A stretch of 48,651 nt of DNA, filler included, from Jimgerdemannia flammicorona (lineage: Eukaryota), in NCBI GenBank assembly GCA_003990765.1. It is 2 parts of 2 records of this genome, joined end to end, with 100 filler letters (N's around TTAATTAATTAA, not from the genome) between each part and the next. Parts side by side here need not be neighbours in the genome. Positions count along the whole stretch, not along the records: positions 1 to 24,278 come from RBNJ01000994.1; 1 more part is not named here. One strand, written 5' to 3'. Below are positions 1,000-47,516 of this stretch, piece after piece. The stretch's first letter is position 1, and every line of letters starts with the position of its first letter. The translations under genes were made by a program, and so were the position numbers. The notes beneath the pieces were generated by a model. It saw only the letters and a program-made list of their open reading frames with translations. It was not told the origin of the DNA and made no database searches.

Positions 1000-1450
1000 C
1001 AAAAGTACCGCGATGGCACTCAAGATCACTAGTGCTACCCAAAGAGCCATCGAAAGACAATGGCACACCACCGAGCCTCCGACCATAGAGCTATACTATG
1101 AGGATATTCAGAGTATTGTTCAGACTCATCTCTCTTGGATCTCGCACTTTAGAGTCTATCAATATTGGGCAGAATTCCAAGAGTACTTCAAGCTTGGACA
1201 GGTACTCAATCAGGATCCAGCAATGACTAAGGAGGACTGGATTGCCAAGTGTCAACTCTTCCACTCACAGATCACTATTACCAAAAGGATCCACAAGTTA
1301 TTCTGAGAAGATGAAGCAGTGATAGACCACCTGAGAGGAGTAACTTCCACTGACTTCGAGAAAGTGAGAAGACATCATTGGGAAACAGTCATATAGCAAA
1401 TTGCACAGTATAAGACCATACAGACCATTGAAGCCTGAAAGTTTGAATAG
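989..1450 (+). pseudogene. Family A accessory ORF3 (about 153 aa, unknown function) between integrase and PPT
   Basis: ATG overlaps the last pol codons. Reading MASNKST..QEYFKLGQVL..KRIHKLF(R)EDEAVIDHLRGVTSTDFEKV.. reaches TAG 1448-1450, the same length as 31963-32424. Internal stops are transition-type. Confidence 0.8.
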
Positions 1451-3140: not shown

Positions 3141-5585
3141 TGTGATGGTATAGCCAGATTTGGAAGAAGGAAATAGGGAATAGACACTTGATCACACCCA
3201 GTCCCAAAGTAGTATAGTCACATAGTTAACAGTCCTCAATTTCGCAACTTGCTAAATATTTCACAAAGTGCAAGATCGAGCTCTCCAATATAGTATAGCA
3301 TTTCGCAACTGGCGAAACATTTTACAAAGTGTTAAATGACTCATAACTTAGCCATGTAACTCAGTAACCATCTCATAGCTAGCAAACTTATATAAATAAC
3401 CCAGTATCTTCGAGTGAATAAACCTCAGATCGAAATAGTTCAAAAGAAAAGAGATAGTAAAGGAACTAGTAAGCCTGCAGGCAGATATACTTTGAACTCA
3501 CCCACCCTCCCCTGCAACTTCAAGAGACTCTGTGAGAGTCAGAACAGTCAAGTTTTCAAGATACAGAAATCTGACGTACTTTCAAGAGTAAGCATCCACT
3601 ATGTTACAACTTGGTGCCCATTGGCTGGTGATTCAAGACGAATCCCTCACTTTCAAGCTGAACAATGAACAACTGCCACCACCCAAACAACCATACAAAC
3701 TGAGCCCCAATACCCAGACAAGATGGATATGAGATCACCAGTATTCCATGGATATACCTCAGACAAATCGATCATCACCTTTATTGATGATTTTGAGCAG
3801 TATGCTGCTGTAAGGACCCTGACAGCAGCACAGCAAGTAGCCCTCATGCCCTTCAGCCTACGAGGCCCTGCCAGAGTAGTATTCACAGCTGCAACCTATA
3901 CAGGAAATGATACCAATACTATACTGACAGCACAGAAGACCTGGCTCCAAAATACATATTATACAGACAAGATCAAGCAAGCTCTGAAGGATTAGCTCAA
4001 TACAACATGCCAAGGAATGAGCGAGGATCCAAATACATTCTATACCAGAATTCGATATTAGATAATCCTTGCAGACTATGCTGCTGCTATCCGAGATCAA
4101 GTAGCCGAAGCAACCTTTATGAAAGGAGTTCATCCAGAAATAGCCATGGCCATCCACTCATCACCAGTGATTCTGGATCTGCCACAGAAGGTCACCTATG
4201 CTCAGCGATATTGGATAGCCAGACATCCACAAGACCATACAATGGAAAGGGTCACAGGAGTCAGAATTGAGGCACCCAAGGCAACCAGTGTGATCTCTAC
4301 CACAATGATCAATCAGAACACACCTCAGCCAAAAGCTACAGAGCAGCAGAAGAACAGTGACCCTATGGAGGAACTCGCCAAAAGGTTTGCTGAAATGACC
4401 ACCCATCTGGGAGACATGGTAAAGGAAATTCGAGGAAGAGACCACTGCCCTGTTCAGAAGTTTGCCGCCACCTCAGATAAGAAGAAAGATACCTGCTATA
4501 CTTGTGGAGAGGAAGGCCACTACTCCTATGAATGCATGAGTGAAACCAAGCACAAGGCTCAACCAAGCAATGCTACACAAAACAAGAAGCAGGCCAATAT
4601 AATTACCTTCAAGGAGATCGGATATTCTGACAAAGAAGAATGGGAGGCCTATCCTGCTCAGACCACCAAGAAGGATGCTCGCAAAGAACCCTACAAGAGA
4701 CCACCAGGAAGATCCAAGAAGAACTCAGTAGAAAAGCAAATGGAAACTGCCACAGAAAGTCAAGTCAAAGAGATGGACCAAGATACAGAGCTGGAGCAAG
4801 CAGTTCAAGATATCATCTGAGGAACCACTCCAGCCAGTGAAGGAGAAAAAGAAAGGAAGCTTTGCAAGACAAAGACCTTTAAGTATGATATCTTCAAGGA
4901 TCTTAGCCAACAAAAGATCAATGCAACCTTTGGTCAGCTTGCAGAAATCCCAACATTCAGACAGCAAATGAGGTTTGGACTTGCCGAAATAACTAAGGAA
5001 CAGGGATGGAAGATAACCAAGGCCAATAACACTCAAGAGGACTCAGGAGAAGAAAGTGAGGACAATTGCAAAACCTCTACATATGCAACATGCCAAATCA
5101 AAGATAGAATCTTTGAGGCCATCATTGATACAGGAGCAGGAGGATGCCTCCTCAGCAAGAAGGCAGCAGACCGCCTAGGTTGGGATGTAGAAGAAGCAAC
5201 AAAGCTGGTGTTCGTCACAGCCAATGGCACAAGAGCCATACCTCTGAGAAAGATCTGAGATGTTCCCATCAAGATTGGAAGAGCAACCATCCCAGTAGAT
5301 GTAATCATAATCAATGCCACCAACTATGACATCCTCATCAGCAATCAATGGCTTCACAAAGCCAAGGCAGTAATCGATCTCAACACCCAGAAGATGCAGA
5401 TCACCTACCAGGGACAGAAGATATGAATTCCCATCAATGTCAACAAAGGAGTCCTGCCTGACATAGAGGAAGAAGAGAGTGAGCAAGAGGAAGCTTATAT
5501 GGTGACTACTCCAAAGAAGAAGAAAGTTGGATGGATGAGTGAAGAAGAATGGTACAAGAAGATGGCAGAAGGCTATGTACCACCA
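3141..5585 (+). mobile_element. Gypsy family A copy 2, 5' half: LTR 3141-3608, PBS from 3612, gag, CCHC knuckle, protease; truncated by the LINE
   Basis: LTR TG..CA; PBS TGGTGCCCATTGGCTGG; gag with CYTCGEEGHYSYEC; protease IIDTGAGG and DILISNQWL. Homology to copy 3 stops near 5585. Confidence 0.93.
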
Positions 5586-5645
5586 GGTTACACAACCTTT
5601 GGAAGGTACTTTCAACATTGTTTTCAGCAAAAAGAGACTAACAAC

Positions 5646-7670
5646 ATGGCAACCGATAGGCAACCTGAGGTGCATACTGGGCAGGGTGGCCCAAGCACTT
5701 TCGACTGGCAGCAGGTGGGGAGGGGTCCAGGCCTGGGGGGAGGTATGAGGGGCCTGCTGGTGGGTGGATGTGAAAGGGGTGGAGGAGGTGGTGGAGGATC
5801 AGGATCTAGGAGAGCAAGCTTCACAGAGATGGTGAAGGGGAGACAGCCGATGTCAGGGCTGGAGAGCTGGCTGAGGAAGGGCAAGGAGACCAAGAAGGCA
5901 ATGGTGCCGGGGGGTGTGACCCTTGGAAGGGGGGGCGGTGGAGCTGTGGGAGTAGTGGCTGGGGGGGGTGTGACTGCTGATGGTGTTGGGACTGTCAATC
6001 TGGAAAAAAATCCAGATGTGACAGCTGATGGCGAGACTGAGTGGCTGAGGCTTAGAAGACAAGGGGACTTGGCAGATGGTGTAATGGGTCTGGCGGTGGC
6101 CCTGTTACTCAAGAAATTGATTTCAGCATTCACGGTCACACTGTGCTTCTGGGGCCTGGTAGTGATGGTGAAAATGGTACTGGGGCTCATCACTAAGCAG
6201 GTGGCAGATGTGGTATCTGTGAAGTTTTTGAAGGGACTGGAAGGAGTGGAGGTGGGTTTTGAGGAGATGGCACCACTGGAGGAGGTGCTGAAGGTTGGAT
6301 TGGTGGTTGGGAAGGTGTGTGTTCCAATGGCATGGTGCCTGAAGTGGGACCCCAGGGTGGTCCAACTGCTGGTGAAAGGAGTGCTGATGGTGACAGTGAT
6401 GGAGACAAGGAAGAGAGTTGAGGATTTCATGGCGGAATATGGTGAGGTGGTGGATATCGGGTTCAGGGTCTGGGAAGGGACCTCACTCAGGACTGGTGAC
6501 ATGGATGTGAGGATTCGGCTGGCTGGGAAAGAAGCCACTGGGAAGGCAAGGGATTGGCCTTCGGCGATGGTCTGGGGAGTAATCCTGTGTAAGGTGACAA
6601 GAGTAAAGGGGAGTGAGGAGGAGGAGGAGGATTTACTGGAAGCACTAGAAGAGCTGGGGGGTGCTGTAGAGAGGCGAGCGAAGGCTTGAGAGGCTTTTGA
6701 AGAGGCAACACACTTGGAGGTAGTGGATGCAAAGTGGATTCGAGTGACCAAGGAGCAGTGGGAAAGGGCTCAGGGGCGTAAGAGGCAGAAGAAGTTGCTG
6801 GCCAAGCTGGATAGCAGACCACTGGGGGAGGTGAGCAAGGTGAAGGGCACAGGGGGAGCTGAAGCGAGTGTCTGGGCCAGTGAGGGGGAGGGGAAGGACA
6901 AGAAGGAGGCAGGGGAGGATAAGAAGAAGGCTGGGAAGGACTCATATGCAGATGGTACACTGGAGGTGTGGGAGGAGGACTGTGTGGACTCCCCTACCCC
7001 TACCCCTCTCATCAGGCATGGCCCGGCTTCCCGGAATAGAGTGGTGGAAGATGTACCAATGCAAGGGACCCAGAGGGTGTAATTCAGAGTTCCAGAGATA
7101 GTGTATGGGGGACAGGTGGTGGCGGCTGGCAAGGAGGAACTGGTGGATGTCCTGGAAGTATGGGATGAGTCTGCAAGTGCTGGAGCTGACACCACAATGT
7201 TGGATGGAGGGAGGCCAGCGACTCCAGGGGGGAAAGAGGTGGAGAACTTGCTTTGGATGTGCCGGATGATGAATAACCTGGCGGCAGAAGAGTTGGGGGA
7301 AGTGGACTTGCAAGTGATGAGTGATGAGCATTGGGCAGGAATACTGCAGGGGGATGGCATAATGAAGGCATTGAAGGCGGAAATTCTTGCAGTGTACCTG
7401 GAGGAGGAAGGGTATGAGGTAGATAAGGAGAGGGAGGAGGAGATGGTGGTTGTTGCTGGAGAAAGGACTGAATACTGCTGGAACAAGCGACATGGACTAC
7501 AGCTCTAGCAGGAAGCATATATCGAATACTGAGAGGAGTTTGAGGAGAAGGCCAATGGAGAGATGAATGAGCTGCTGGCTGGATTGGAGGCTCAGAGGGC
7601 AGAAGAGGAGGAGGTGGCTGCGGAACATAATTTGGACAAAGCACAGGAGGAGATGAGCATGGAGCAGTAG
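5646..7670 (+). pseudogene. LINE ORF1 (Gly-rich N-terminus, RRM-like region, acidic C-terminus)
   Basis: One frame joins the ORF-track pieces 5499-6689, 6714-7082 and 7101-7508. SFTEMVKG motif; LLVKGV..AEYGEVVDI..RTGDMDVRI resembles Tx1-type ORF1. Confidence 0.75.
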
Positions 7671-7703
7671 AGGCTGATTGATGACATCACATATATCATC
7701 AAT

Positions 7704-10700
7704 ATGAACAGTACAATCAATATTTTCTCTTTGAACATGAATGGGTTATGGGGTGCTTCTCAACATAGGAACATTTTTACTTGGATGAAGGGATTGGAGG
7801 CTGATCTCTTCCTCTTGCAGGATGTCCAGTGTGAAGATGACTCTGATAGGTTAGAATGGATAAAGGAATGGGGAGGTGTGGCGATTTGGAAGGGCAAGGT
7901 TGGGATTTTGGTTAGGAAAAGCAGAGGGGAGATACAGAATGTGTGGTGCTGGGGGGAGAGACTGATCTGGGGAGAGTAGATTCAGGCAGGCTGGGAGCCA
8001 GTTATGATTGGCTCCTGCTACTGCCCTGTGGTATGGGGTGAGAGGGTAGATTGAGTGAAAGGCTTACAGGAGAGTGGATTACTTGTGGAGGCTGGGGTGG
8101 ATGTGCTCGGAGGAGATTTCAATATGGTTAAGGATATACTGCTGGATAGAACAGATGGAGGACAAGGTGCTGAGAGCAGGAGTGGAGGGCTGGTGGTATG
8201 GGAGGAAGTAGAAAGGCTAAGTGCACTATTGGATATTGAAAGGGAGTGCTGGGGGAGTAGGAGGGTCTATACACATTGGGCAGGGGGTCTGGGGACTAGA
8301 ATCAACTGGATTTTGACAGCCTGCTGCTGGGGACTAGATGTTTGAAAATCATTGGAGATGGAATGATGTCCATGGTCAGATCACTGGGGGCTTTTGGGAC
8401 AGGGGTGCTTTGGGGGAAGTGGGGATGGGCCTGGACATTGGCGCCTCAATTCCTCTTTGTTAGATGACAAGACCCGGTGGGATGAGTGGGCTAAAGACAT
8501 TCAACTGAGGGTGGAGAACTGGAGGCAGGAAGGGGCCACAGTTGGGACTCGGTGGATGAGGATGAAGGAAATGGCCAGGATTTACTGGAAGGAGGCTAGC
8601 AAGGAGGCAGGGAAGCAGTGAAAACAAAGAGTATGCTGGGTCTCTGCTAGATTGATGAGGCTCCTGGAGGAGTGGGCAAGGCTGACGATGTTGGAGGAAG
8701 AAGAAGATTGGAGATTAATGAGGGTGAAAATGGAGGTTGGGGAACTTCAACAGGTGCTGCGGGAGGAGGAAGAGGCAAGGGTACAGAGCTTGGCAGCACA
8801 TCTTCACTGACAGGATCTGGAGGAAGGAGAGAGGCCTTCCAAGCTTCTTACAAGGGCCCTTAAGGTGAGGTGGGTCCAGTAATGGTGGGAAGGGGTATTG
8901 GACTCTGATGGTGTACTGGTGTGTAGTGTACAGGACATTCTTGGATCGCTGAAGGAGAGATGGAGTGGATTGTGGAGTGAGGAGGAGGGTGGGGTGGATG
9001 CGAGGGTGGGGTGGATGCTGCTACAATTGAACGAATATTGGAGAATTGGCACCCACCACAAGTCGAAGGGCTAGGGGACCTGGTGATGTCTGTACAGGAG
9101 AATGAGATCCACCAGGTTCTTGCCGTGACAACATCCAGTATGGCACCTGGGGAGGATGGTCTGCCCTGGGACTTTTGGAAGTGAATGGTTGAAGTCCCAG
9201 GGGTGATGGGAGAGATGACAGCATTGTGTGACCTTATTCTACAGACAGAAAGGTGGGTGGGGGAGCAGGACCTTGGGCTGGTGACACTGCTCTACAAAAA
9301 CAAAGGAAGGCAGGAGGATTGGAAGAACTAGCGGCCGATAATGCTGCTAGATATGGACAGAAAGTTGGTAACTAAGGTGGTGGTGGTGAGACTACAGAAG
9401 GTGGCCCAGCAAGTCATGGGTGTTGAGCAGAGGGGATTTGTGAGTGGTCGGCTTATCAGGGATGGCACTGTCTGGGTGCATGGCATTATCGAAGGGGCAA
9501 GGACCTGTGGACTGGATGGGCATCTAGTTTTCTTGGACCAGAAGAAGGCATATGACTGGGTGCGAAGAGTCTGGCTGGAGAAAGTTTTGGATAGAATGGG
9601 GGTACCACATCAATTTCGGTCAACAATGGTCAGCCTACTGGAAGGGAGTAGGGCTGCACTCATATGTAATGGACATAGAGGGGTAGCATTTCCCTTGGGA
9701 AGGGGGGTGCCCTAGGGGGATCCATTGTCCCCCATTTTGTATGCTCTTTCTCTGGAACCACTTATAGACTGAATTAGGTGGAGGATAGTGGGGCTCTCTG
9801 TCTTTGGCATAGGATGGAAGGTTGGGGCCTTTGCTGACAACATGGTGGTGGGTTTGGATTCAATTGCTGATGTTGAGGAGCTCAAGAGGACTGTGGAGTG
9901 GTATGAGGAGTATTCTGGAGCTAAGCTGAATTGGCATAAGTGTGAGACGATGGTGCTCAGTAATGGCCTCGTGGGAGGGGAAGTTATAGGAACAATTGTC
10001 CCCACCAGTGAAGCAGTGTGGTACTTAGGTATCTACTTGTCAGTCTATGGGTCATTTCTGCCCAAGCTTTAGTGAGAGCAGAGGATTGGAATCTGGGAGG
10101 AGGCCCTGCAGAGTTGGGGGGGACAACATTTTTCTCTGGCAGGACAGGTCTCGATTTTGAATGTCTACTGGCTGCCAAAGTTGTGGTACCTGGTATATCA
10201 TCTGGACTTCCCAGCCTGGGTAGTGAAGAGATTGATGAAGTTGGCGAAGAGGTGGATTTGGGCTGGCAGGCAGAGTCAAATTAGTTGGGAGACCTTGTCC
10301 CTACCAGTGGCAAGAGGCGGTCTTGGGCTGGTTGACTTCCCAAAACAGTTACACTGCTTGAGAGTATGGTGGCTGAAGAGGGCGGTGGAGTTGAGAGGAG
10401 GTGGATGGGTTTCTCTGTTACAGAAGTTATGGGAGAGGTGGGCATCGCCAAGGGGCTCAACTGGTGATCTCCTCTCCTTGGTTGGGCTTCAGAACACTGC
10501 CCAACTATGATATAAAGGATTTTGGTGGGGAATTGCAGAAGGAGTGTACTGCATTGGTATTCATTGGCAGGGGAATGAAGGTGAGAAGGATTGGGACCCG
10601 GCAATGTGGAGATAGGACCATATACTGCTGAGTGGTACTTCTTTAGTTGAGTTCGACATTGGTGATAGAATGGAATGCCAAAGGGGACCAGGCCAGGATC

Positions 10701-11377
10701 TGTGGCCTAGCAGTTGGCAAGGAGTTGGAATTGGCGAAGAGTGGAACTGGCATGGTGTTTGGACCTGGAGTGCTGCAGTAAGAGCATGGCTGCCACCAAA
10801 GTACTGGATGGTCTGGTGGCGCATGCTGTAGAGGAATATTATGCTCAATTTTTGCTCAGGGCACCTTGTTGTAGGGGGTTGCTTCGACTGTGAGGAGTGC
10901 CATAATGTAGAGCAGGAGGGAGGTTATGTACAGATGCCAGAACATTGGCTAGGAGAGTGTGAGGTGTTGGGGGATTTTTGGCAGACAATTGGAGATCGAT
11001 TAGAGGTACAGAGTAGGAGTGATGAAGTACGGGGGTGATGAGAGGACTTGAAGGATAGATTGGTAGGGGGGATAGGGAAGGAGTGGCTTACTTTAGGTTG
11101 GGCTTTGGCTATTTGGGTGGGGCTAACCAGTCATTGGCTATTTTTTTTTGAGGATGGGAGGAGACAGAGCTTGGGGGACTGGCTGCTGCGATGGCATAGG
11201 CTTATAGAAGACACCTTAACAGGCTGGTGGCTGGGTTGGGAGATGTGGGGTGGTCAGAGGCACCGCTTGGTGGAGAAAATCTGTGGGCAAAGTGGGGGGA
11301 GAGTGGGGGTAGTTGGTGAAAGGGTGATTTTCATTCGTGAGGAAGTAGGGAGGGGCCCCCCTGTGGGGATTGGATAG
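7704..11377 (+). pseudogene. LINE ORF2: APE endonuclease, reverse transcriptase, C-terminal Cys/His finger
   Basis: Endonuclease: SLNMNGL, LLQD, GGDFN, SDH, WRLNSSLL. RT: PGEDGLP, N*RPIMLL, QRGFV.GR, LDQKKAYD, GVP*GDPLSP, FADN, GAKLN..K, YLG. C-terminal C..C..H...C. Confidence 0.93.
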
Positions 11378-11474
11378 TGGGTCAGAATGATGTATATTTA
11401 TTCATAGACTGGTAATAAAGGCGGAGTCCAAGTGACTATAAAAAAAAAAATATATATATATATATAATTACACA

Positions 11475-12665
11475 GCTCCTTTCTCTGCTATCTTACTGGT
11501 CACAAGATTTGGTAGACAACCTTTTGAGTTCCCTTTCCCCTATTATTACTCTCTTTACCTTGTATTGGTTTACTGTGTCTGCAGGGACATAGTGGGAGGA
11601 GGGCAATGGTGATAAGTTGCCCTTTTATCAGTATCAGATTGGTGTCTTCTCTACTTTTTTATAGATTCTGATACCTTCAGCTATATCTGAAGTATGCTCA
11701 TTTTAGTATAGTACCTTCTTCCTTTTGCTATTACCAATAAAGTATTATCTCAAAGCATTACAGATTATATAGGGAGTTGGCTGATCTTAGGCATCAAGTA
11801 CCCAGTATAGATTATCTGTAGGTTCTTAATACCTGTGGTGAGATTCTCTGGCTTTGGCAAGCTTTCTAGTAAGCACAGTTCTAGTATATATGACTGTTTT
11901 TCAGATATTGTTGAGATGGGAGGAGAGATGGCTGTCATAAATAAGAGGAAGAGTAATAATGGTAAATCAGTAGAGTGCTAGACTGAGAGCAGTTATCAGG
12001 GCTGGAGTGGGTGCTGCTTCAGTAAGATCTTTTAATTAGTACAGAGCAGTTAGGTAGTAGGTATCACTCTCAGCTTCTTTTGGCAATATGTGGGGTTAGG
12101 CCCCAGTTATTGAAGGAGAGTCAGGGGGCCTGAGGCTACCTATTTCAGATATCTTAGCTGTACTCAACTAAAACTGGAAGCTGATATGGTAATATAATTG
12201 ATGCCCACAGACTTGAGTAGTAGAGTATTAGAGATTTTCTTCCATCTCATATATAAATCCTTTACTTATTTTATCTGGGAGAACTAGGCTCTATCTACTA
12301 TAATACATATACTTTGATGAGAGTTTTTTCTTTATCTGTCATCCTTCTTAGGGTGGTAGGGGCTATTCTATTCAGCTTAGGCATAGTCTTATACATATGT
12401 TGGGGTCTCAGACATATGCTTTTGGTCATTGGCATATGGCTGAATTCCTCCTGGTAATAGAGAGAGTATAGTGCACAGAATGAGATATAGACCACTATAG
12501 ATTCTGCTATATCTAGTATAGTTGAATTGCTGGATAATATCTAGTCTAAGTTAATGAGAAAGCAGTGCTTTATAAGTAGTAGGGGAGAGTTTTAGCCTAT
12601 ATAGTCTAGGTTTCCTTCTAATAAAAATCTGTGGGACTCTGAGTCTGTAAAACAAAAAAAAAAAA
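11475..12665 (+). mobile_element. About 1.19-kb non-coding poly(A) retroposon, older copy
   Basis: Collinear with 47517-48651 from the same 5' start (GCTCCTTTCTC); AATAAA near 12620; poly(A) ends at 12665. Confidence 0.8.
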
Positions 12666-15129
12666 TGTAATTCCTGACTATAAGGAAGATCTTGCCAGTG
12701 TAATCAGAGTCAATTTCTCCTCCTTCAACTGAGATTTTGCTTTTGGCCAGACTGCTCCTAGTCTTGATAATTTCAGCATGGTTTTCTGGCAGCTTGACTC
12801 CAATCCTAGTACCAAGTAGGGTGGTGGTCTGTGGTTTGAGTGTAGTATCTTGAATGCTGGCAAGGTCTATTCCTATGGCTGTATTCTGGGATCTTGGCTT
12901 CAAGGTGAAACTTCTTGACCTTGAGGGTGATGTCTGATTCTTGTTCCTCCTCATCATCACTGTCAGCCTGAAGCTCAGGGGGCTGGTCATCTTCTTTGGC
13001 TTTCCTTTTTACTTTGGCAGCTTCTTGCTCATGTTTTTGTTGGCAGATTTTCCTGACTTCACTGATACAGGACCAGCAGTCATTTAGGTGTTCAGAGCAG
13101 TACATCCTAGTACTATGGGGGCATCTTTCCTGAGAGGCATAGCCATTAATAATCTTGTTATACCACTGCTCATCTGTGAGCTTGGGTGTTTTGTTCTTGT
13201 TCTTGTTTACTGAGTATATAAAGACCTCTGTGTCCTCTTTATCTCCTTCCTCTATGTCTGGTAGGACTCCTTTATAGACATTGATAGAGACTCATACCTT
13301 TCTTCCTCTATAGTTGATCTATATCTCCTGGACATTGAGGTCAATGATGGCCTTGGCCTTATGAAGCCATTGATTGCCAATGAGGATGTCATAGTTGGTG
13401 GTACTTGTAACAATCACATCTACTGGGATGGTAGCTACTCCTATCTTGATAGGGACTTCTTGGATCTTGCTAAGGGGGGGTAGCTCATATACTATCTGCT
13501 GTGACATAGACCATCTTGGTGGACTCTTCAATGTCCCAACCTGGGCAGTCAATTGTCTTCTTGCTCATGAGGCATCCTCTAGCACCAGTATCAATAATGG
13601 TATCAAAGATACAGTCTTTGATCTGATATGGAGTATAGGCTGATGTCTTGCACTGGTCTTTAGATTCTTCACCTGAGTTTTTGAATTCTTCCTGTGCATT
13701 GTGAGCTTCTACAATCTTGTACTCTTGATTCTTAGCAGTAGTTGCAAGTCCTACTCTCAACTGCTGTCTGAAGGCAGGGACTTCGGCTAGCTATCCAAAA
13801 GTAGCATTGACCTTTGTCCTTGTAGATATCATACTGGTGGATCTTGGTCTTGTATAGCTTCTGTTCCTTCTTGCTTTTGCTTTCTCCTGAGACTGGAGTA
13901 GTACCTTCAATGATTTGGCAGACAGCTTTATCTAACTCCATATCTTGATCAATCTCTTCAGGTTGAGTCTTGCTTTGAATAGTGATAGCTGAGGTCTTCT
14001 TTGGTCTTCCAACTGGCTTACTGTTGCTCTTATTGTCATAGGGCTTAGACCAGGTTCTGGTGCCTTCAGTAGCAGGGTAGAATTCAAGCTCCTCATAGTA
14101 TTCTTCATTATCAGTATCACCAATCTCCTTAATGACTACTACATTGGTTTGTTCTCTGGTTCTACTAGCATTGCTTGGTTGGACTTTGCATCTTGTTTTG
14201 ATCATACAATTCTTTACATAGTGGCCTTCTTCTTCACATCTGAAGCATGTGATATTGTGTTCTTCTGTAGCAGCTACAAATCTCTATACTGATCTCCTGT
14301 TGGTGCTTCAGACTTCTCTAACAACATCACCAAGGTATGTAGTCATCTTGGTGAACTGCTTGGCAAGTTCTTCCACTGGGTCAGCTTTGGCTGCCTTGGA
14401 GGTAGGTGGGGTTGGTTATCTGTTTACAATTGTAGCAGATATGATACTAGTTGGCTTTGATGGCTCCATCTTGATACCAGTTATTTTCTCCATTAAGTGT
14501 TCAGCAGAGTGTCTAACAGTCCAATATCTCTGTGCAAAGACCACTTTCTGATCAAGGATCAGTGCAGCTGGGGTAGACTAGATTGCTAGGGCAATTTCAG
14601 GGTAAACTTCTTTGAGGAAAGTTGAATCTGCTATTTGTTCCTTGAGGGTATCATCATAGCTAGCCAAGACAATCTGGTAGTAGATTTGGGTATAGAATGA
14701 GTTGGGATCTTCACTAAGTCCCTGGCAGATAGTATTGAGTTGATCCTTGAGAGCTTGCTTGATTTCTTCAGTATAGTATGTTGTTCTGAGGAAGACCTTC
14801 ATGTTGACAAGTTTGGCTATACTATTATTGGCAATAGTGGCTGTATTGAACTTGTCTCTGGCAGGTCCTCTGAGGCTGACTGATAGAAGGACCAATTGTG
14901 CATCCACACCAAGAGCTTATATGATAGCAAATTGTTCAAAGTCTTCAATGAAGGTCAGGATTGACTTTTTTGTAGTATATCCATAGAATGTGGAGGGGTA
15001 CATTTCTATCTTGTTTTGAATTCTTGCAGGGGTGACTCTTGTAGTCAGAGTAGTTATTGTGGGAGTTGTTTATTTTTTAGCTTGAAAGTGAGAGATTCAT
15101 CTTGAATCACCAGCCAATGGGTACTAAGT
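12666..15129 (-). mobile_element. Gypsy family B internal 5' half: PBS/leader, gag, knuckle, protease, Cys/His module, truncated dUTPase
   Basis: Leader nearly identical to family A; gag SLRGPAR; CFRCEEEGH; IIDTGARG; dUTPase IIKTRSSLAK..EGGEIDSDYTG cut at 12666. Confidence 0.9.
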
Positions 15130-16649
15130 TATCACATAGTGGTCACTGAGTCCTTCAAATATATCAGATTCTCTTCAAGATATATCTCTTAGACTAACTC
15201 AAGTTTGTTATAAGCAAGTTCTTATTGGAGTGCCTTTCCAAGGTCTTATAGTCCTCAAACTTCTTATCTTTAACTGTCTTGTTATCTTTTAGATTACTTG
15301 TAAGGAAGTATATGTAAGTAAACCAGAACTGACTTTATTTCAGAGAAAATAAGAGAAGTATTTATACAAAATATAATTCAATGATTGCTAAGATATAAAG
15401 CTAAATATAAATTTCAATAACTAAAATAAAATGCTAGGATAGAAAAAACTACTAAGTTCCAGAGCCAGCACTGATGGTTGTATAGATTCAGAATACTGGT
15501 ATAATTCAGTATTATGTCAAAATGCTGGTGCTGGTATTATTCAGTATAACTAAGAGACTTAGAGCAGAATGTTCAAGACCATAGGGACTTCATCATCAGA
15601 GATCAGGATGTCTTCGAAGGAGATGAGATCTGCAAACATCTCATCTGTCTCATCATTGTCATTGTCATTATATAGATTGCATATTTTACATACTTTGTAT
15701 ATGTTATGTATCTCACATATATCACATGGGATGATGTCATCACTGATGATATCATCATATTCAGTGGGAAGAAGGTCTGGCACTCTCCAGTCTATGAGGT
15801 TCTCTTTCACAAAATAGAGAACAAATGTGGGGTCTTGGAGAGGTCTAACCTGGATGCTTGGGACTTAGAATACTGAGATCAATCTTTGTAGGAATTGATC
15901 TGAGTTGTCCTGGCGAATGAGATGCCAGAAGTCTTCTACTTCATCACTATTGGACTGGGCTTCTGTAGCCACCCTGGCATCTAGTATATTGATATGGCAG
16001 GATGATAGGTCTCTGAAATCTGGGACTTTAACATACTCCAAGTTGGGGATCGACCATAGTGCATGCCTGAAGATCTGATGGATCTTCTTAGCTGTCCTTG
16101 TTTTGCATATATCCATGAGAGTGGTATCTTGTAGCTCTTGAGTGCTGGCCTGTGGGAACTCCCAGCAGAGGAGGTTTCCTATTTCATACTCCTGCCACAT
16201 TTTGAGACATTCGGTAGTAATGGTGATTCTTGTTTCCATTTCACAACAGTAGAGGATATAGTAATAAGGGTCACTAGTACCCAGGTTGACACTAGGAGTC
16301 CTTCTTGAGCAGATCCTCATGGCTCTTCTAATGTCTTGAAACATCCTTTCTTCAACTAAGGTATCTTAGTGGTTCCTTGATCTTGAGGTTTGGCAAGCAG
16401 TAGACATTTCATTTGTAGTAAGTCTTTAAGCTATTTTGGGATTGGTGGGTCTTATTGATTGCTACTACTGTGGTTTCTTGATCCTTCTTTTATATTTCTC
16501 AAGATATCTGAACTATGGTCACAATGACTCACAGTTGGTCATCATCACTCATCTCATATGCTATATGATCTTCTTGTACTCTGATCTGATGGCTTGTAAG
16601 GAAAGGCTGTCTCCTGTGCTAATGTCATCATTCTGGGGTCATCATTACA
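15130..16649 (-). repeat. Family B 5' LTR, about 1.5 kb, containing ORF3 in U3
   Basis: On the minus strand it starts TGTAATG at 16649, exactly at the junction with family C gag, and ends GTGATA (GTGACA in the other copy) just before the PBS. Collinear with 23068-24278. No convincing PPT between ORF3 and the promoter segment. Confidence 0.75.
15559..16407 (-). pseudogene. Family B ORF3, mutated copy
   Basis: MSTACQ..MFQDIRRAMR..; homologous to the open copy at 23518-24270; contains internal stops. Confidence 0.85.
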
Positions 16650-19600
16650 GTATAAATCAGAGACTGAGAAGCCTTTAAGAGAGCCCTTCACAAGCAGTTC
16701 AAGTCTGTTAATACTACCAAACTAGCCAGAGACAAGCTAGTGAACATTAAGTAACTCAAGTCTATACAAAGCTATAATGCACAATTCTTGTCAATCTTAC
16801 TCAAGCTATCAGCAATATCTGAGTATGAAGAGATAGACTGCTATGTCCAAGGTCTGAAAGGAAATACACAAGTCAAGGTCAAGCTAGAAGAGTCCAAAAA
16901 CCTTGATGAAGTCATAAGAATTGCTGATAGGTTTGATGTTATCACCTTTGGTAACTACTTCAAACCAGAATACTACAAGAAGAACTACTTCAAGAACTAC
17001 TACAAGAACCAACCAAGGACAGTTAGCCCAGCACCAATAAACTTAGACACTATGAATAGAAAGAACACCAAGCTTACTTCTGAAGAAAAAGACCATCTGA
17101 AGAAATCTGGAGCTTGTTTCTTTTATTGCCAAACAGAACACATTGTAACCAAATATCCAAAGAAGACTAGTGAACCCTCAAGACCAGTCACTGTGTTGTC
17201 CAAAGACATATCTGTCAACCCTACTATCAGTCAACCCAAGCTCAAGATTAAGAAGCTTCATCCAAGGGCCTAGACCCCTTAATATCAAATAGAAGGAGCC
17301 ATTGATCTTGACTTACACTTAGTCAAACAAGTCACTATTTCAGCCAAAGGCTGAACTATGGTACCTACTGGAATAGCAGTTCAATGTCCTGAAGGACATT
17401 ATACCAGAATTACACCATAATCAGGACTTAGTATTAAATATTATTTAAATGTAGGTACTGGTGTCATTAATCCAGACTTTCAAGAACAAGTTCAAGTTCT
17501 ACTTATCAATCAGAAGGATCAAGACTACACAGTTAAGGAAGGAGACTGAGTCATGCAAATTATTCTAGAAAAAGCCAGTAAACTCAAGATTACAGAAGTC
17601 CAAGAACTCTCTGAAACCAAATAAGATTAAAAAGATTTTGGCAGTACTGATCAAGCAGCAAGTCTTAGTGAAAATCGAGCTCAAGCTATGCTCATTTTCA
17701 AAGACCTAGTCAAAGGAAAAGAAGTTTAAGTACTCATAGACAGCAGAGCTGCAGGGAACTTCATCAATTAGAATCTTATCAAAAGCCTCAAGATCCTTAT
17801 CAAGCCTATATCCAAGAACAATAGTATAGTTACTACAGATGATACCCTGCACTCCATTAAGTCAATTGCCACCAAACTACCCATTAAGATCCAGAAATAT
17901 TAGGAATAAGTAGACTTTGAGGTTGTACTACTAGGAGATTATGACCTAATCTTAACTTACAAAACATAACCCTGACATTGATTGATATAAGAATGAAGTC
18001 ACTCTACTTCAAGATGGAGCCAACATCACTATCAAGACAAATAAGATCATAAACAAGACCCAGATTATAATACTATCAGCTATACAGTACAAGAGAGCAC
18101 TCAAGAAGGCAATGTATATCTTTATTATAATAGTCTGTCTCAAGAAACAAGACAAGAGACTATTAGTTAATGAAAGCATTAAGTTCCTGCTAAAAGAATT
18201 CAAGGATGTCTTTTCAGACAAGCTACCTGATCTACCATCAACATATTATGAAATCAAACTAACTCCAGGAGCTATACTATTCAAGAAGTACATGTACCAC
18301 ATGTCACTACTTGAAATTGAAGCAGTCAAGAAGGAACTAGAAGAACTACTTATACAAGGAGCCATTCAGCCAAACAAATCTCCTTATGGCTTACCAGTCT
18401 TATTCATCAAGAAGAAGAATAGTACTCTATGAATGTACATAGACTATCATGTACTCAATAAACTTACTGTTAAGAACTACTATCCACTACCCTTGATTGA
18501 TCAAATCTTTGATACTCTCAAGAATACCAAGTACTTCACTAAGTTAGACCTTATGTCAGGATATCACTAGATTTGAATTAAGCCAGAAGACATTTCCAAG
18601 ATTGCATTCATGACCCCCTTTAGACTCTACAAATTCCTAGTCTTAGCATTTGGTCTCACCAATGTATCCACCACATTCTAGACCCTGATGAACAATATAT
18701 TCAAGGACTAACTATTTATTTTCCTATTGATATATCTTGATGATATCCTGATCTTTAGTGCAACTAAAGAAGAACACCTCAAATACATTTGAATAGTCCT
18801 GGAGATCCTGTGAAAACACAAGCTTTATGTTAAGCTCAAGAAGTGTGAATTCTTCAAGAAACAAGTCAAATATCTTGGTCACATTGTCTCTGTATAAGAA
18901 ATTCAAGTAGACCCATATAAGATAGAAGCAATTGAAGAATGGCCCATTCCATCAAACCTCACAGAACTCTGATCCTTCCTTTGTCTAGCTGGCTACTACT
19001 GTCACTTTGTCAGAAACTTCTCTGGTATTGATGAGCCACTGACTAACCTCATGAGGAAGACCCCACACTCAGACCACTATGTACCCTACACCTGGGACCT
19101 CTTCTGTCAACAAGTCTTTCAAGAACACAAGAACTACCTGACCCATACTCCAGTCCTGCATAATGCAGATCAAGGCCTAAAATTCATAGTCATCACTGAT
19201 GTATTGAATTTTGCCATTGTCAAAAGATGATGGTAAAGAATATCATTCTATTGCTTTCAAGTCTCACAAGTTAGCCCCAGCTGAACAAAAGCTAGCCACT
19301 TATGAGAAGAAACTACTGACAATAATATATACACTAGACCACTAGTGATACTATCTAGAAGGTGTCAAGTTTGATATTATCACCAATCATCAATCCCTTA
19401 AGTATATCAATACCCCATCTACTCTGTCATATCTATAAGCCAAGTGGAGCCTCAAGCTTCAAACCTTCAACCCAATGATTATCTACAAGCCTGGCAAGAC
19501 ACTTATAGTACCAAATGTCTTATCAAGATGCCCAGATCTTACTACAATCATATAGGACACCTTGGCATCAGAATTCCTAAATCAAATCAGGTAAGCTTAC

Positions 19601-21020
19601 AAAGAAAATGTAATTGTCACTAGAGTTTTCTTGAATGAGCTCAAGGATATATATACTGTCAAGAACAACCTGATCTATTATCAAGATCAAGTCTACCTAT
19701 CTGAAAACATAAACCTACACTACAAGGTTTTATAAGAACACCATGACTCCTCTCTTGCCAGTTACCTGGGAATTGAGAAGACTGCCAAGAATATTCAACA
19801 CTACTACTATTGGCCAAGTATGGTCAAGGAAATCAAGAACTATATTGTTAGCTATAATCTATATTAGTACAATAAGTCTACCAACCAAGCACCAGTTGGT
19901 TTCCTACAACCACTGCTAATTCCCACCAAGAAATTTGAGCAAGTTACCATAGACTTTATAACTCAACTACTATGAACTTAATCTGGTGCTAATGTTATCA
20001 TCATATTCATTGACTGCCTAATCAAAACTATGGTTACTGAATCAACCACTATCAATGCTACTGTACCTGAGATTGCAAGAATCTTCTTCAAGTCCATCTT
20101 CTATCACTATAGCCTACCATGAGTAATTGTTAGTGATTGTGACCCCAAGTTCACCAGTCACTTCTGGAAAACTCTCTTTAAGACCCTGGGAACCCAATTG
20201 GTTATGTCTACCACCTTTTACCTACAAACTGATGGACAAACTGAGTACATGAATAGAACTTTAGAACAAATGCTTAGAAACTATATTTCTTATAAGTAAG
20301 ATAATTGGAACCACTATCTGACTTATGCAGAGTTTGTATACAATAATGCTGTCTAATCATCTACTGGTCTTTCCTCTTTCTGGTTACTCAATGGTCAAGA
20401 TTCTGAGACCCCTGCACATCTATTATCTTTCAAAAAAATAGTCAAATATAAGTTCCAACCATCAAGAACCTTACAGACAAAATGGATAAACTACTCAAGA
20501 TTGCTACTGTAAATCTTCAGAAGGCTCAACAGCATCAAGCTAAGTATGCTGATAAGAAATACTGTAATATTACTTATACTGTTAGAGATCAAGTCCTACT
20601 GTCTACCAAGAATCTCAAGATATAATCTCAAGTCAACTATCCTTCAAATAAGTTTCAACCCAAGTATATTGGACTTTTTGAGATTACTGAACAAGTCTCT
20701 GCATTCTCCTACCATCTCAAACTACCTGAAACCATGAGAGTACACCCAGTCTTTCATGTGTCATATCTCAAGACATAGAACCAGTCACCACCATACTCTG
20801 GTTGAATGCCTAAGCCTTCTGTCCCTATGATTATTGAAGACTATATTGAGTATAAAGCTGAGAAAATTCTTGACAAATGAATCTGCTACTGCTGTCTTGA
20901 ATACCTAGTCAAGTAGATAGGTTATCCTAAATATGATGCTATCTGGGAACCACTGGTCAACCTCAAGAACTCTCAAGATCTAGTTCAAAACTTCAAGGTA
21001 AAATGCATTGTCCAATTCCT
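16650..21020 (+). mobile_element. Gypsy chromovirus family C: partial gag, dUTPase, protease, RT, RNase H, integrase, chromodomain; degenerate, no LTRs recognised
   Basis: gag ARDKL..YVQGLK and GACFFYC. dUTPase about 17240-17650 (RITP*SGLS, GVINPDF, FGST). Protease LIDSRAAGNFI. RT YLDDILIF. Integrase TDGQTE. Chromodomain about 20845-21000 (EKILD..EYLVK*.GY....WEP..NL). Confidence 0.92.
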
Positions 21021-21259
21021 ATAGTGACTTCTTTGGATTATTGACAACCTATATCAATGACCAGTGTCTCATATATTAGAAGTTTACTTTGGGACCCCAG
21101 AACTAGCAGAACATTTAATTAACAAGAAGTCTACTGAAATGAAGCTACTAGCTGGGTTTGAACCTCTCCTAGTTGATTAGTCTAATAATAGGCCCTCTGC
21201 CCTATATGAGGTTGGCCAATCCCCACCAATGTGCCAATACAAGTTTGAGAAATTTTGGT

Positions 21260-22170
21260 TAAGTATATCTCTCAATAATTATATCTCCCTTTTATTATTT
21301 TATTTGATTGGTTATATGTTATGTCTGGCTATCTACCTTAATGATTATATCTTCTTTTTATTATTTTATTTAATGGGTTATATATCATATTAGGCTATCT
21401 GTCTTGATGATTATATGTATATCATACATATCTGGCTATCTGCCTTAATGATTATATCTCTCTTTTATTTTTATTTTATTTGATGGATTATTTTCATATC
21501 TAGCTATCTATTTCAATAATTATATCTTCCTTTTATTTTCATTTTATTTGATAGATTATATATCATATCTGGCTATCTATCTTGATGATTATATCTCCCT
21601 TTTATTTTTATTTTATTTGATGGATTATATTTTGAGTCTGACTATCTGTCTTAATAATTATATCTCCCTTTTATTATTTGATTTGATGAGTTATATATAT
21701 GTCATGTCTGGCTATCTGTCTTAATAATTATATTTTCTTTTTATTATTTTATTTAATAGATTATATATCATATCTAGCTATATATCTTGATGATTATATC
21801 TCTCTTTTATTTTCATTTTATTTGATGGGCTATTTTTATATCTGGTTATCTATCTTGATAATTATATTTCTCTTTTATTATTTTATTTGATAGATTATTT
21901 TCATATCTGGCTATCTGTCTTGATAATTATATTTCTCTTTTATTTTCATTTTATTTAATAGATTTCATTTCATATCTGGCTATCTATCTTGGTGATTCTA
22001 CTCTTTATTTATTTATTTTTATGGGTTATATATTATATTTGGCTATCTGTCTTCACAATTATATCTTCCTTTTATTTTCATTATATTTGATGAATTATAT
22101 GTTATATGTGACTATTTCTCTCAATAATTATATCTCTCTTTTATTTTCAATTTATTTGATAGGTTATGCT
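21260..22170. repeat. Tandem array of about 13 degenerate units of about 67 bp
   Basis: TATCTGGCTATCTGTCTTGATGATTATATCTCCCTTTTATTTTCATTTTATTTGATGG.. recurs mostly at 63-70 bp spacing, with one short unit. Confidence 0.9.
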
Positions 22171-23067
22171 GCCCTTCACTCACCTATCTACTCTTTACTC
22201 ATTATGTTTTTTTCCTACCACCCACCCTCTTTGTAGCCACTCCTCTATGTTTTTTTTTTTTTTTTTAACCACTAGAGCAGTCTTCATAACTATCTATTCC
22301 CTTTACTATCTATTTTTGCCACCCACCCTTCACTTATGGTTCCTTTGTAGCCACTCATCTCTTTGTAGCCACTCACTCTCTTTGTGGCTACCCACTCTCT
22401 TTGTGACCACTCTATACTCAAATATTTTTCACCTAAGAGATAGAGATCAATCCTTTATAGCTGATCACTTACTCTTTATTATCTTCATATTTAGTCACCC
22501 ATCCTTCATAGTATTTATAATCACTCATCTCTCTTTCAAAACTGACCTCTTTTATCATAATGGTCCAATCTATATTCCCAGAGCTCTGAGAGTCAAAACA
22601 GATCACTAATATATCTGAATCTATATTTTCAGAGCCCTGAGAGCCAAAACTGATCATCATAAGTATCTATATAGTTTATTTATCAAAATTATATATTGTT
22701 TATAATATTTATAGTAGGTATAGTAAAACTATCATTTTTTACAAATATATATAGTTCATTAGAATACAGTTTTTTGTAATATTAATCAAGTTAGATTTAG
22801 TTATTTTTTATATATTTTGTATCTGATTCAGGGTTAGCTGAGCAGTAATATCATATATTTTACATATCTTCCAAATATACTTATTTATCTCCTTTGACTC
22901 ATCAAGATAGTATAATATCAATTTGACTAGTTTTGTAATAGCTTATTCTTATTCTAAATCTGTTTTTTCTTATTTTTATTCATATTTATCTTGATATAAA
23001 ACTTTTCCAAAAATGTGGTAGTTCTTCAAAAGTAGTATTAGGGGTATGGAGGTATAAATCTTTGTAT

Positions 23068-24278
23068 TGTCACGTAGTGGTCGCTGAGTCCTTCAAATAC
23101 ACCAGATTCTCTTCAAGGTGTATCTCTTAGACTAACTCAAGTTTGTTATAAGCAAGTTCTTATTGGAGTGCCTTCCCAAGGTCTTATAGTCCTCAAACTT
23201 CTTATCTTTAACTGTCTTGTTATCTCTTAGATTGCTTGCAAGGAAGTGTGTGTATTGCACTGAGAAGACTGACTTTATTTCAGAGGAAATAAGAGAGGTA
23301 TTTATACAAAATATAATTTAATGGTTGCTAAGATATAAAGCTAAATATAAATTCTAATAACTAAAACTACTAAGTTCCAAGGCTGGCATTATTTAGTATC
23401 ATATCAAAATGCCGGTACTGGAACAATTTCGCGTCACCTCAGAATACCGGTGCTGGCATTATCCAGTGTTACATGAGAATACCGGTGGTGGCATTATCCA
23501 GTGTAACAAAGAACTTTTTAGAGCAGAAAGTTCAGGATCATGGGAGCTTCATCATTATCATCACTGAAGGAGATGAGATCCGCGAACTCTTCATGCAGGT
23601 CACACGTTTTGCGTGCTTCGGGTATGTCGCGCAGGATGATGTCATCGCTGATGATGTCATCACGTTCGGCGGGGAAATCAGGAACAAGATCTGGAGCTCT
23701 CCAGTCTATGAGGTTCTCTTCCACAAAGTAAGGGACAAATGTGGGGTCCTGGGGAGGTCTGACCTGGATGCTTGGGCCTTGGAATACTGAGATCAACCCT
23801 TGTAGGAATTGGTCTGGGTTGTCCTGAAGAATAGGGTGCCAGAAGTCTTCTACTTCTTCGCTGTTGAGGGTGATGGTGGACTGGGCTTCTGTAGCTACCC
23901 TGGCTTCTAGTGCATTGATGCGGCAGGATGACAGGTCTCTGAAGTCTGAGACTCTAACATACTCCAAGTTGGGGATCGACCATGGTGCATGCCTGAAGAT
24001 CTGATGGATCTTCTTTGCTGTCCTTGCCTCACGTAGGTCTATGGGGGTGGCATCTTGTAGCTCTTGAGGGCTGGCCTGTGGGAACTCCCGGCAGAAGAGG
24101 TTTCCTATTTCGTACTCCTGCCACATTTGGAGGCATTCGGTGGCAATGGTAATCCTTGTTTCCATTTCACGGCAGTAGAGGATAAAGTGATAAGGGTCTG
24201 CAGTACCCAGGTTGATGCTAGGAGTCCTTCTTGAGCGGGTCCTCATGGCTCTTCTGATGTCTTGAAACATCCTTTCCT
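23068..24278 (-). repeat. Family B LTR (3' or solo), CpG-intact, cut by the assembly gap
   Basis: TGTCACGTAGTGG terminus at 23068 with no PBS beyond it; minus-strand TATAAATA near 23300; 35-bp tandem duplication at 23441-23508; collinear with 15130-16350. Confidence 0.88.
23518..24270 (-). CDS. Family B ORF3, open 250-aa frame, unknown function (N-terminus probably lost in the gap)
   Basis: Uninterrupted frame. Shares QEY.[IL]G and K[KR]IH.[IL]FR....I..L..V...DF with family A ORF3; acidic C-terminal tail. Confidence 0.8.
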   Translation of the reverse strand: MFQDIRRAMRTRSRRTPSINLGTADPYHFILYCREMETRITIATECLQMWQEYEIGNLFCREFPQASPQELQDATPIDLREARTAKKIHQIFRHAPWSIPNLEYVRVSDFRDLSSCRINALEARVATEAQSTITLNSEEVEDFWHPILQDNPDQFLQGLISVFQGPSIQVRPPQDPTFVPYFVEENLIDWRAPDLVPDFPAERDDIISDDIILRDIPEARKTCDLHEEFADLISFSDDNDEAPMILNFLL

Positions 24279-24378
24279 NNNNNNNNNNNNNNNNNNNNNN
24301 NNNNNNNNNNNNNNNNNNNNNNTTAATTAATTAANNNNNNNNNNNNNNNNNNNNNNNNNNNNNNNNNNNNNNNNNNNN
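24279..24378. other. Artificial 100-bp assembly spacer (44 N, TTAATTAATTAA, 44 N)
   Basis: Symmetric N runs around a 12-mer that has stop codons in all six frames. Confidence 0.97.
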
Positions 24379-24486
24379 CCACCCTCCCCTGCAACTTCAA
24401 GAAGACTCTGCGAGAGTCAGAACAGTCAAGTTTTCAAGATACAGAAATCCGACGTACTTTCAAGAATAAGCATCCGCTACGTTACA
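24379..24486 (+). repeat. 3' end of a family A LTR, CpG-intact
   Basis: Matches about 3502-3608 and ends CCGCTACGTTACA; no PBS follows. Confidence 0.92.
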
Positions 24487-24829
24487 ATATATATAACTAA
24501 ATTTGAAATATATCTTATTTTAATATCTACTAAAAATCTAAATATATATATAAAGTAAGACTTTAAAATTTTGAGATTTTTATTTTTAATAAATTAGCTT
24601 CTAAAAAAAAAAAAGATATTCTAATAAAATTAATATTACTTAAATAGTAAAATATTAGTAAACTATTAAAATAATATTAAAAAATCTTATTTTATATTAT
24701 ATATTACTTTTATTTAAAAATAATAATATTAGACTCAATAAGTAACTTATTAAAATAAATAAATAGCTTATTATTAAGTAAGTTTTGATAGTATAAATAG
24801 AGCTGACTAAATAATAATTATATATATTT

Positions 24830-40650: not shown

Positions 40651-40651
40651 A

Positions 40652-47514: not shown

Positions 47515-47516
47515 GT

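Follow-up and report, generated by a model that had tools for sequence, protein, structure and literature searches.

The 5' LTR of family B, a dUTPase-bearing group of Ty3/gypsy retrotransposons in Jimgerdemannia flammicorona, is best explained as a long true LTR that carries a selected accessory gene, ORF3, in sense orientation within its U3 region; this explanation as a whole is held with good confidence. For its two components, the minus-strand segment from 16649 to 15130 very probably represents the true LTR of the family, and ORF3 is probably a functional gene of the element. In sister family A, a homologous accessory gene is found as well, but the conserved polypurine tract (PPT) follows that gene, whereas in family B it precedes ORF3.

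Element content of the window

The window, i.e., the whole stretch of 48,651 nucleotides that was analysed, has an AT-rich composition (37.6% G+C) and a high density of retroelements, which were mapped by Pfam scans of all stop-to-stop frames of at least 60 aa together with self-BLAST (Table 1). Families A and B share 66% DNA identity (blastn) and 39-62% amino-acid identity (tblastx). Elements with a dUTPase between PR and RT have been described in fungi, rotifers, and planarians (PMC6431247, PMC2864245, accessible parts). The internal region of family B is truncated near 11458-12600, with gag, PR, and dUTPase at about 15100-12600, while family C begins mid-gag at the family B junction and constitutes a disrupted target.

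Table 1. Features of the window discussed in the text (PBS, primer binding site; positions count along the whole window)
Feature	Coordinates	Strand	Description
Family A		+	Ty3/gypsy, order gag-PR-dUTPase-RT-RH-IN
Family A LTRs	1488-1964, 3141-3608, 26250-26716, 32461-32927	+	467-477 bp
Family A PPT with 3' LTR	32447-32460 (PPT), 32461-32927 (3' LTR)	+	467-bp 3' LTR; comparison standard
Family A accessory ORF	31963-32424	+	homologue of the N-terminal half of ORF3; upstream of the PPT
Family A accessory ORF, second copy	989-1450	+	
Non-LTR element	~5430-11450		G+C-rich
Family B internal region	11458-15100	-	gag (CCHC), protease, dUTPase, RT start; Pfam
Family B PBS region	15101-15129	-	20/20 match to the family A PBS region
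Family B Ty3/gypsy 5' LTR (U3-R-U5) with ORF3 (copy 1)	15130-16649	-	1,520 bp
Promoter/R/U5 segment	15130-15558	-	429 bp
ORF3, copy 1	15559-16407	-	long ATG 16407, short ATG 16344, stop 15561-15559
LTR leader 5' of ORF3	16408-16649	-	242 bp; TATAAAAG at 16494-16487
Family C chromovirus	16650-21010	+	Ty3_capsid and RNase H Pfam matches; tblastx match with family A pol
Second family B LTR copy (copy 2)	23068-24278	-	cut inside its 5' part by the contig end
Contig linker	24279-24378	.	44 N, TTAATTAATTAA, 44 N

The ORF3 gene and its relatives

In copy 1, ORF3 spans 16344-15559 when read from the short ATG; the frames of several homologues open 21-26 codons earlier (MPA..QTSRSRNH..), at a start that corresponds to an ATG retained in copy 1 (16407-16405). 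The frame of copy 1 is broken by in-frame TAA codons at 16368-16366 and 15867-15865, and copy 2 has an open frame of 250 aa (24270-23518). The ORF3 HMM matches copy 1 at 15562-16344 with an i-E of 2e-97.

A word-indexed search of 5.8 billion proteins returned seven ORF3 matches, and an exhaustive search of 1.84 billion cluster representatives returned five. All of the matches are located on short JGI or ENA contigs, their lengths range from 138 to 342 aa, and none is fused to pol. A distant homologue, P0010, is encoded on a contig of 4,848 bp. A metagenome scan for ORF3 relatives yielded one contig of 1,345 bp (L001) that contains no element boundary; it is 67-70% identical in DNA and displays the order TATAAAAG, ORF3, and TATAAATA..GTGAATAAACCTCAG, the last of these resembling the family A LTR. 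No ORF3 relatives were found in the viral and prokaryote-genome collections.

Composition and possible role of the ORF3 protein

The N-terminus of the ORF3 protein is basic (six K/R among the first 25 residues, with a pI of 12 for residues 1-25) and contains an arginine-rich stretch, RRAMRTRSRR. The core is predicted to be helical, residues 40-140 reaching pLDDT values of 65-80 in the better model, while the tail (residues 196-250) is predicted to be disordered and comprises 16 D/E versus 4 K/R as well as 19 hydrophobic residues. The AlphaFold models were poor (pLDDT of 38.2 from 8 sequences, and of 52.9 from 16). No Pfam family, and no DNA-binding family, was detected in ORF3 at E<=0.01, and when the low-confidence model was compared with PDB and BFVD by Foldseek, nothing matched at E<=0.001. 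An atlas search gave a best score of 0.89, to an unnamed cluster. As the models are poor and neither a fold nor a family was matched, the proposed function is drawn from composition, which suggests that the product is most likely a trans-acting regulator or adaptor, involved, e.g., in transcriptional activation or RNA handling.

The narrower proposal of a transactivator, again judged by composition, appears unlikely. Much the same holds for the alternative in which both the long LTR and its gene are real, with the protein acting as an RNA-handling factor (in export or packaging, similarly to Rev) instead of a transcriptional activator: the strongly basic, arginine-rich N-terminus, the predicted helical core, and the leucine-rich, hydrophobic C-terminal end would all suit such a factor, and an accessory protein of Cer1 was reported to be necessary for the export of genomic RNA (PMC10309623, accessible part); however, ORF3 resembles no RNA-binding family, P0010 does not have a strongly basic N-terminus, and the argument is one of composition throughout.

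Selection on ORF3

The dN/dS ratio is 0.26 between copies 1 and 2 (242 codons) and 0.14 between copy 2 and L001 (239 codons, with dS near saturation). These values bear on the possibility that the long LTR is real and ORF3 is only its passenger, i.e., a captured or duplicated piece without a role in the element that is undergoing slow decay. The orphan status of ORF3, with no known domain or fold, is compatible with such an origin, as are the broken frame of copy 1 and the C-terminal third, which varies in both length and sequence. Ratios of 0.14-0.26 argue against it, and so do the frames that stay open in diverged lineages (homologues down to 28-38% identity), the alignment of 16 sequences, in which 9 columns do not vary and 19 hardly vary, and the C-terminal ..P..LNF motif, which is kept down to 38% identity. 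The homologue is moreover retained in sister family A, where the frames are open in six intact or partial relatives. A mere passenger thus seems quite improbable; judged from these comparisons, ORF3 is an orphan gene confined to its lineage, and purifying selection acts on it.

The homologous gene in family A

Beyond the two family B copies, a six-frame search of the window with the ORF3 HMM (stops read as X) matched only two sites, both of them in family A (i-E of 0.0016 and 0.0024); their score was reached in 0 of 40 shuffles. In a profile comparison by hhalign, the N-terminal half of ORF3 aligned with the family A homologue along 102 columns, with a probability of 87.6% and an E-value of 3.5e-6. 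A tblastx comparison of the ORF3 region with the post-integrase region of family A gave no match at E<=0.01, so the homology between the two families surfaced with profiles only. Both profile results agree with the claim of the earlier note that the family A homologue lies outside the LTR. The accessory frame in the window (31963-32280, and 989-1306 in the other copy) ends at a TGA and contains in-frame stops; intact relatives read through at the TGA and encode a protein of 153 aa that ends 22 nt before the PPT. The family A homologue therefore occupies the position between integrase and PPT, whereas the family B ORF3 does not, its PPT being located upstream.

Boundaries of the family B LTR

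Read on the minus strand from 16649, the family B LTR comprises the leader, ORF3, the promoter segment, and the terminal ..GTGATA at 15130. The earlier note had placed ORF3 inside an LTR of about 1.5 kb, with a promoter segment of about 420 bp and some 240 bp more beyond the gene, and these proportions were confirmed by measurement: the LTR runs for 1,520 bp (16649 to 15130), the promoter segment for 429 bp (15558-15130), and the stretch from the long-form ATG (16407-16405) to the terminus for 242 bp. The TGTAA terminus that it described was likewise seen, at 16649-16645, within an LTR opening TGTAATG and next to the plus-strand flank GTAT. This flank belongs to the antisense gag of a different gypsy element (family C, Ty3_capsid match), and the junction is abrupt.

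At 15130, the LTR ends in ..CACTATGTGATA in copy 1 and in ..CACTACGTGACA in copy 2. The LTR thus starts with TG, and its CA end is present as ..GTGACA in copy 2 and altered to ..GTGATA in copy 1, a copy with many transitions; such termini agree with the short, imperfectly inverted ends expected of a Ty3/gypsy LTR. Directly 3' of the LTR lies ACTTAGTACCCATTGGCTGGTGATTCAAG, followed by gag CCHC, protease, and dUTPase. The 20-mer CCATTGGCTGGTGATTCAAG has only three sites in the window, namely the family B PBS and the two family A 5' LTR/PBS sites, and three matches were reached in 0 of 100 shuffles. Motif evidence in the promoter segment consists of TATAAATA at 15366-15359 and AATAAA at 15339-15334; the same TATA-to-AATAAA layout is common to family B, the family A LTRs, and L001. 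ORF3 is located in sense downstream of the LTR start (16649) and upstream of the TATA box (15366), which is the position of U3. In both copies, the sequence from the ORF3 stop to the promoter segment is free of purine runs of at least 8, in agreement with the earlier observation that no clear PPT separates the two.

As the window contains no 3' LTR start of family B, it cannot by itself place the LTR start. Contigs of four public runs were therefore aligned to 14500-16900 at 80% likeness. They originate from three soil metagenome or 'organism A' studies, and are short contigs from samples other than this genome; the public runs listed as containing window sequence include no RNA run, and each contains only a small share of it, at most 0.14. 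Past 16649, eight contigs (one from X2, four from X4, and three from X5, i.e., two studies and three of the four runs) diverge from the window into one common continuation, which on the element strand reads ..CTTATTCAGGAGGAAGA and then TGTAATG, with a tract of ..ATTCAGGAGGAAGA. The PPT predicted by the earlier note just before TGTAATGATGACC was thus found, in three of the four runs. For comparison, the 3' LTRs of family A are preceded by ..CCATTCAGGAGGAAGT or ..CTATTCAGAAGAAAGT, and then begin with TGTGATGG. The 13-mer ATTCAGGAGGAAG is identical in the contigs and in the family A PPT (1474-1486, 13/13), and the PPT pattern has no sites in the window other than the starts of the two family A 3' LTRs. 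Two more X2 contigs diverge from 16641, with eight variant letters ending in TTACA and unlike letters thereafter. A PPT with internal sequence, the family C gag, and a third sequence thus all meet TGTAA, the pattern expected at the 5' end of an LTR.

The continuity of the segment is supported by two contigs that extend across the short ATG (16344) by 31 or more bases in both directions (records 14 and 30) and by two that bridge the LTR/PBS junction at 15130 (records 21 and 27). Contig chimeras are unlikely, because the longest identical stretch between families A and B at this junction is far shorter than 31 bases. Loose contig ends near 15545-15553 represent family B variants of the kind also seen in copy 2. 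Taken together, the PPT contigs, the varied flanks, the bridging contigs, and the lack of a purine run after ORF3 are the grounds on which the 1,520-bp LTR is accepted. That the true LTR measures only about 430 bp and ORF3 is internal, copy 1 being the remnant of a tandem pair whose upstream element was deleted up to 16649, is very improbable: sister family A does combine 467-477-bp LTRs with an internal ORF3 homologue, copy 2 (ORF3, 430 bp, and a non-PBS flank) fits both layouts equally, and no full-length family B element is among the sequences seen, but the deletion endpoint would have to fall exactly on TG, a family A-type PPT stands exactly at 16649 in other copies (eight contigs), two more contigs run on from 16641 with other letters, and a PPT-like run before the 430-bp segment is absent in 2 of 2 copies.

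Another run resembling a PPT, GAAGAAAGGA with TGT after it (16353-16342), overlaps the short ATG of ORF3 but is located inside the coding sequence. As a candidate LTR start it was rejected, since it is coding in all long-start homologues, and it is also contradicted by the contigs that bridge the run. Between the LTRs of families A and B, the blastn match is limited to the final ~40 bp; their starts agree at 12 of 18 bases when anchored, and a local alignment of the LTR starts was equalled by 635 of 1000 shuffles and is not significant.

Order of gene and PPT

With the PPT directly before 16649 in other family B copies, plus-strand priming begins upstream of ORF3. The earlier note had inferred that priming moved upstream, and this was not established: the PPT (13/13) and about 30 preceding bases are the same as in family A, so that no new priming site is involved and only the order of gene and PPT differs. 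By eye, the ~15 bases upstream of the 13-mer are also similar to family A. A search downstream of the ORF3 stop for remains of an older LTR start found none (the matches there were equalled by 104 of 1000 and 418 of 1000 shuffles). As to the origin of the arrangement, either the gene or a gene copy entered U3, or the PPT and the LTR start were copied upstream of the gene.

Proposed replication and expression

Since U3 begins right after the PPT, ORF3 belongs to U3 and would be copied to both ends of the element. Each round of reverse transcription would place ORF3 at both ends of the new insertion, and recombination between the LTRs would leave it in the solo LTR. In the genomic RNA, ORF3 is present only at the 3' end, and its translation would therefore need a subgenomic or spliced message; spliced messages are described as the typical means of expressing an ORF3 in LTR retrotransposons (PMC5408684, accessible part).

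Two routes of transcription might be considered. ORF3 could be transcribed as the 3' part of the element RNA; alternatively, the TATA-like TATAAAAG box at 16494-16487 could drive an mRNA polyadenylated at the AATAAA of the same LTR, and this route would yield an mRNA of ~1.1 kb from any LTR. The box is located ~80 nt before the long ATG in copy 1 and 57 nt before it in L001, and the two boxes are out of register in the alignment. A separate ORF3 promoter in the LTR leader is put forward as a candidate, and is less likely than not. It is somewhat less probable, and on the whole unlikely, that each family B LTR constitutes a complete gene cassette, with a TATA-like promoter in its first 242 bp, ORF3, and its own polyadenylation signal. 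If it did, every 5', 3', and solo LTR would be an expressible copy of the gene, and the dose of the factor would scale with the number of LTRs and outlast the loss of internal regions. Such a factor could be a family-specific activator, an adaptor in RNA export or packaging, or an antagonist of host silencing, and the exchanged order of gene and PPT between families A and B would then record an internal accessory gene becoming an LTR gene.

Relation to known systems

To our knowledge, the textbook examples of LTRs that encode a protein are limited to a few retroviruses (MMTV sag and nef). The nef gene starts upstream of the PPT and crosses it. In contrast, the whole of ORF3, its long start included, is located downstream of the PPT, and no homology links the two. 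The likeness to lentiviral nef and to the 3' ORFs of foamy viruses consists in an accessory gene that overlaps U3 (PMC2664473, accessible part). MMTV sag is similar in more respects, being a sense ORF that lies wholly in U3, upstream of the TATA box, in a long LTR (~1.3 kb), and that is thus present in both LTRs of the provirus (same source, same limitation). However, ORF3 shows no similarity to sag in sequence, family, or fold (Pfam and Foldseek, the latter with a low-confidence model), and by eye it has no hydrophobic membrane anchor. Moreover, family B is a Ty3/gypsy retrotransposon in which no env was seen, whereas MMTV is a betaretrovirus.

Cassandra TRIM elements contain a 5S RNA gene in each LTR, which is independently transcribed and multiplies with the LTR. 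This 5S gene is a non-coding pol III gene and Cassandra is a non-autonomous TRIM, whereas ORF3 is protein-coding and belongs to an autonomous gypsy family.

Among Ty3/gypsy elements, the aORF or ORF3 located between integrase and the 3' LTR constitutes the same lineage-specific type of accessory gene, and the family A homologue has exactly this position. Captured ORFs downstream of pol are described in plants and bdelloid rotifers (PMC6431247 and PMC5408684, accessible parts), the ORF3-bearing elements of bdelloids having LTRs of 159-551 bp (PMC5408684, accessible part). Those ORFs are internal and upstream of the PPT, whereas the family B ORF3 is downstream of it, inside the LTR. The rice elements Retrosat2, RIRE3, and RIRE8 combine long LTRs (>3 kb) with an orphan ORF0, in which the rate of non-synonymous change is below the synonymous rate; unlike ORF3, however, the ORF0 of Retrosat2 is located upstream of gag-pol and not inside the LTR (PMC3485330, accessible part). 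The accessory ORFs of LTR retrotransposons are described as internal in the accessible parts of PMC6431247, PMC5408684, and PMC3485330, and a literature search that covered few subscription journals, with sources accessible in part, found no description of a conserved protein gene inside a retrotransposon LTR.

A gene carried by the LTR doubles with each insertion and is still present after LTR-LTR recombination has eliminated the rest of the element, and as a result its dose and persistence evolve differently. Annotation pipelines that take LTRs as non-coding will miss ORF3. The pair of families A and B offers a natural before-and-after comparison for a gene crossing the PPT boundary.

The second family B copy and the flanking element

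Copy 2 is 83.5% identical to copy 1 over 1,167 aligned columns, from the 3' end of the LTR to near the short ATG. The earlier note had assigned it the same layout, with an open 250-aa frame and a tail of ..EEFADLISFSDDNDEAPMILNFLL, and in these respects its account stands; the end at 24278 is, however, artificial, because the contig linker, which shows the window to be a joined pseudomolecule, is located there instead of a natural terminus. Copy 2 represents a 3' or solo LTR, since its ..GTGACA end is followed by non-PBS DNA. Copy 1 has T/A where copy 2 has C/G at 69+44 positions, versus 18+14 in the opposite direction; this excess is a transition-biased decay like RIP or the deamination of methyl-C. 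Copy 1 is without its 3' half and its 3' partner LTR.

The free flanks of the two copies (plus strand GTATAAATCAG.. for copy 1 and ..GGAGGTATAAATCTTTGTAT for copy 2) both have GTAT beside the LTR and have the 9-mer GTATAAATC in common. Copies 1 and 2 could be the LTRs of one old insertion in a tandem family C element, and an integrase with preferred target sites would explain the shared flanks equally well. Comparison of the left flank of copy 1 with a related gag at 36230-35766 (stops read as X) gave no support (1744 of 2000 shuffles), and no longer relatives of the family C gag were found. Near 20840-20980, family C has by eye a chromodomain-like reading.

Flanks and decay of the family B LTR copies

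In the minus-strand Ty3/gypsy family B, which carries the accessory gene ORF3 inside its LTR, GTAT adjoins the LTR in the free flanks of both copies (16650-16660 for copy 1 and 23040-23067 for copy 2), and the 9-mer GTATAAATC is common to these flanks. The shared motifs could reflect either a target preference of the family B integrase or a single target site for both copies, with the chromovirus family C in tandem; the latter reading was unsupported by a protein-level test.

The two LTR copies differ in composition (15130-16350 versus 23068-24278): copy 1 has T/A where copy 2 has C/G at 113 sites, with the reverse at 32, and their G+C contents are 37.7% and 45.3%, respectively. Public contigs share this bias relative to the window, with A>G counts of 89-110 in each run and T>C counts of 53-73. 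The decay of copy 1 is RIP-like or deamination-like.

At 16353-16342 and 24278-24268, a purine run of 9-10 bases with TGT after it extends across the short ATG of ORF3. It resembles a PPT with an LTR start, but in the long form of ORF3 it is coding. The run may serve as a second, internal priming site.

Accessory ORF of family A

The accessory ORF of the plus-strand Ty3/gypsy family A, a homologue of the N-terminal half of ORF3, contains TGA at the same codon in both window copies (32278-32280 and 1304-1306), whereas the intact relatives P0025-P0028 have R, Q, or H at this position; the two copies thus have an inactivating change in common. Probably both copies descend from one already-broken master, or one from the other.

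Other repeats and the contig junction

The block at 5430-11450 (~6 kb) looks like a younger non-LTR retrotransposon containing endonuclease and reverse transcriptase matches (see table); the region 5427-7686, with long open frames on both strands, is probably its ORF1 region. The block is richer in G+C (46-57%) than the window (37.6%), and G strongly exceeds C in it (skew +0.3 to +0.6). Its neighbors are a truncated family A element (to 5569) and a truncated minus-strand element (from 11458).

Coordinates of additional features in the window
Feature	Position	Remarks
Endonuclease/exonuclease/phosphatase match	7671-7976	within 5430-11450 block
RVT_1 matches	9332-10069	within 5430-11450 block
Tandem units of 66-69 bp (~13)	21247-22167	downstream of family C chromodomain
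Contig linker (six-frame-stop)	24279-24378	TTAATTAATTAA between two runs of 44 N
Family A LTR, last ~110 bp	24379-24493	directly after contig linker
Direct repeats, ~1.4 kb (n=2)	40650-42041; 42763-43748 plus 44319-44727	84-87% identical

LTR ends of family C were not found. Beyond the tandem units come a long T run and AT-rich non-coding DNA to 23067; this whole stretch may represent the family C 3' UTR or LTR. The two direct repeats could represent either long LTRs or some non-autonomous element, and the ORF3 HMM detected no homologue in them. They are spaced by only 720 bp and lie beside a minus-strand gypsy pol at 46300-48651. The six-frame-stop linker marks the window as a joined pseudomolecule, so adjacency across it is not real.
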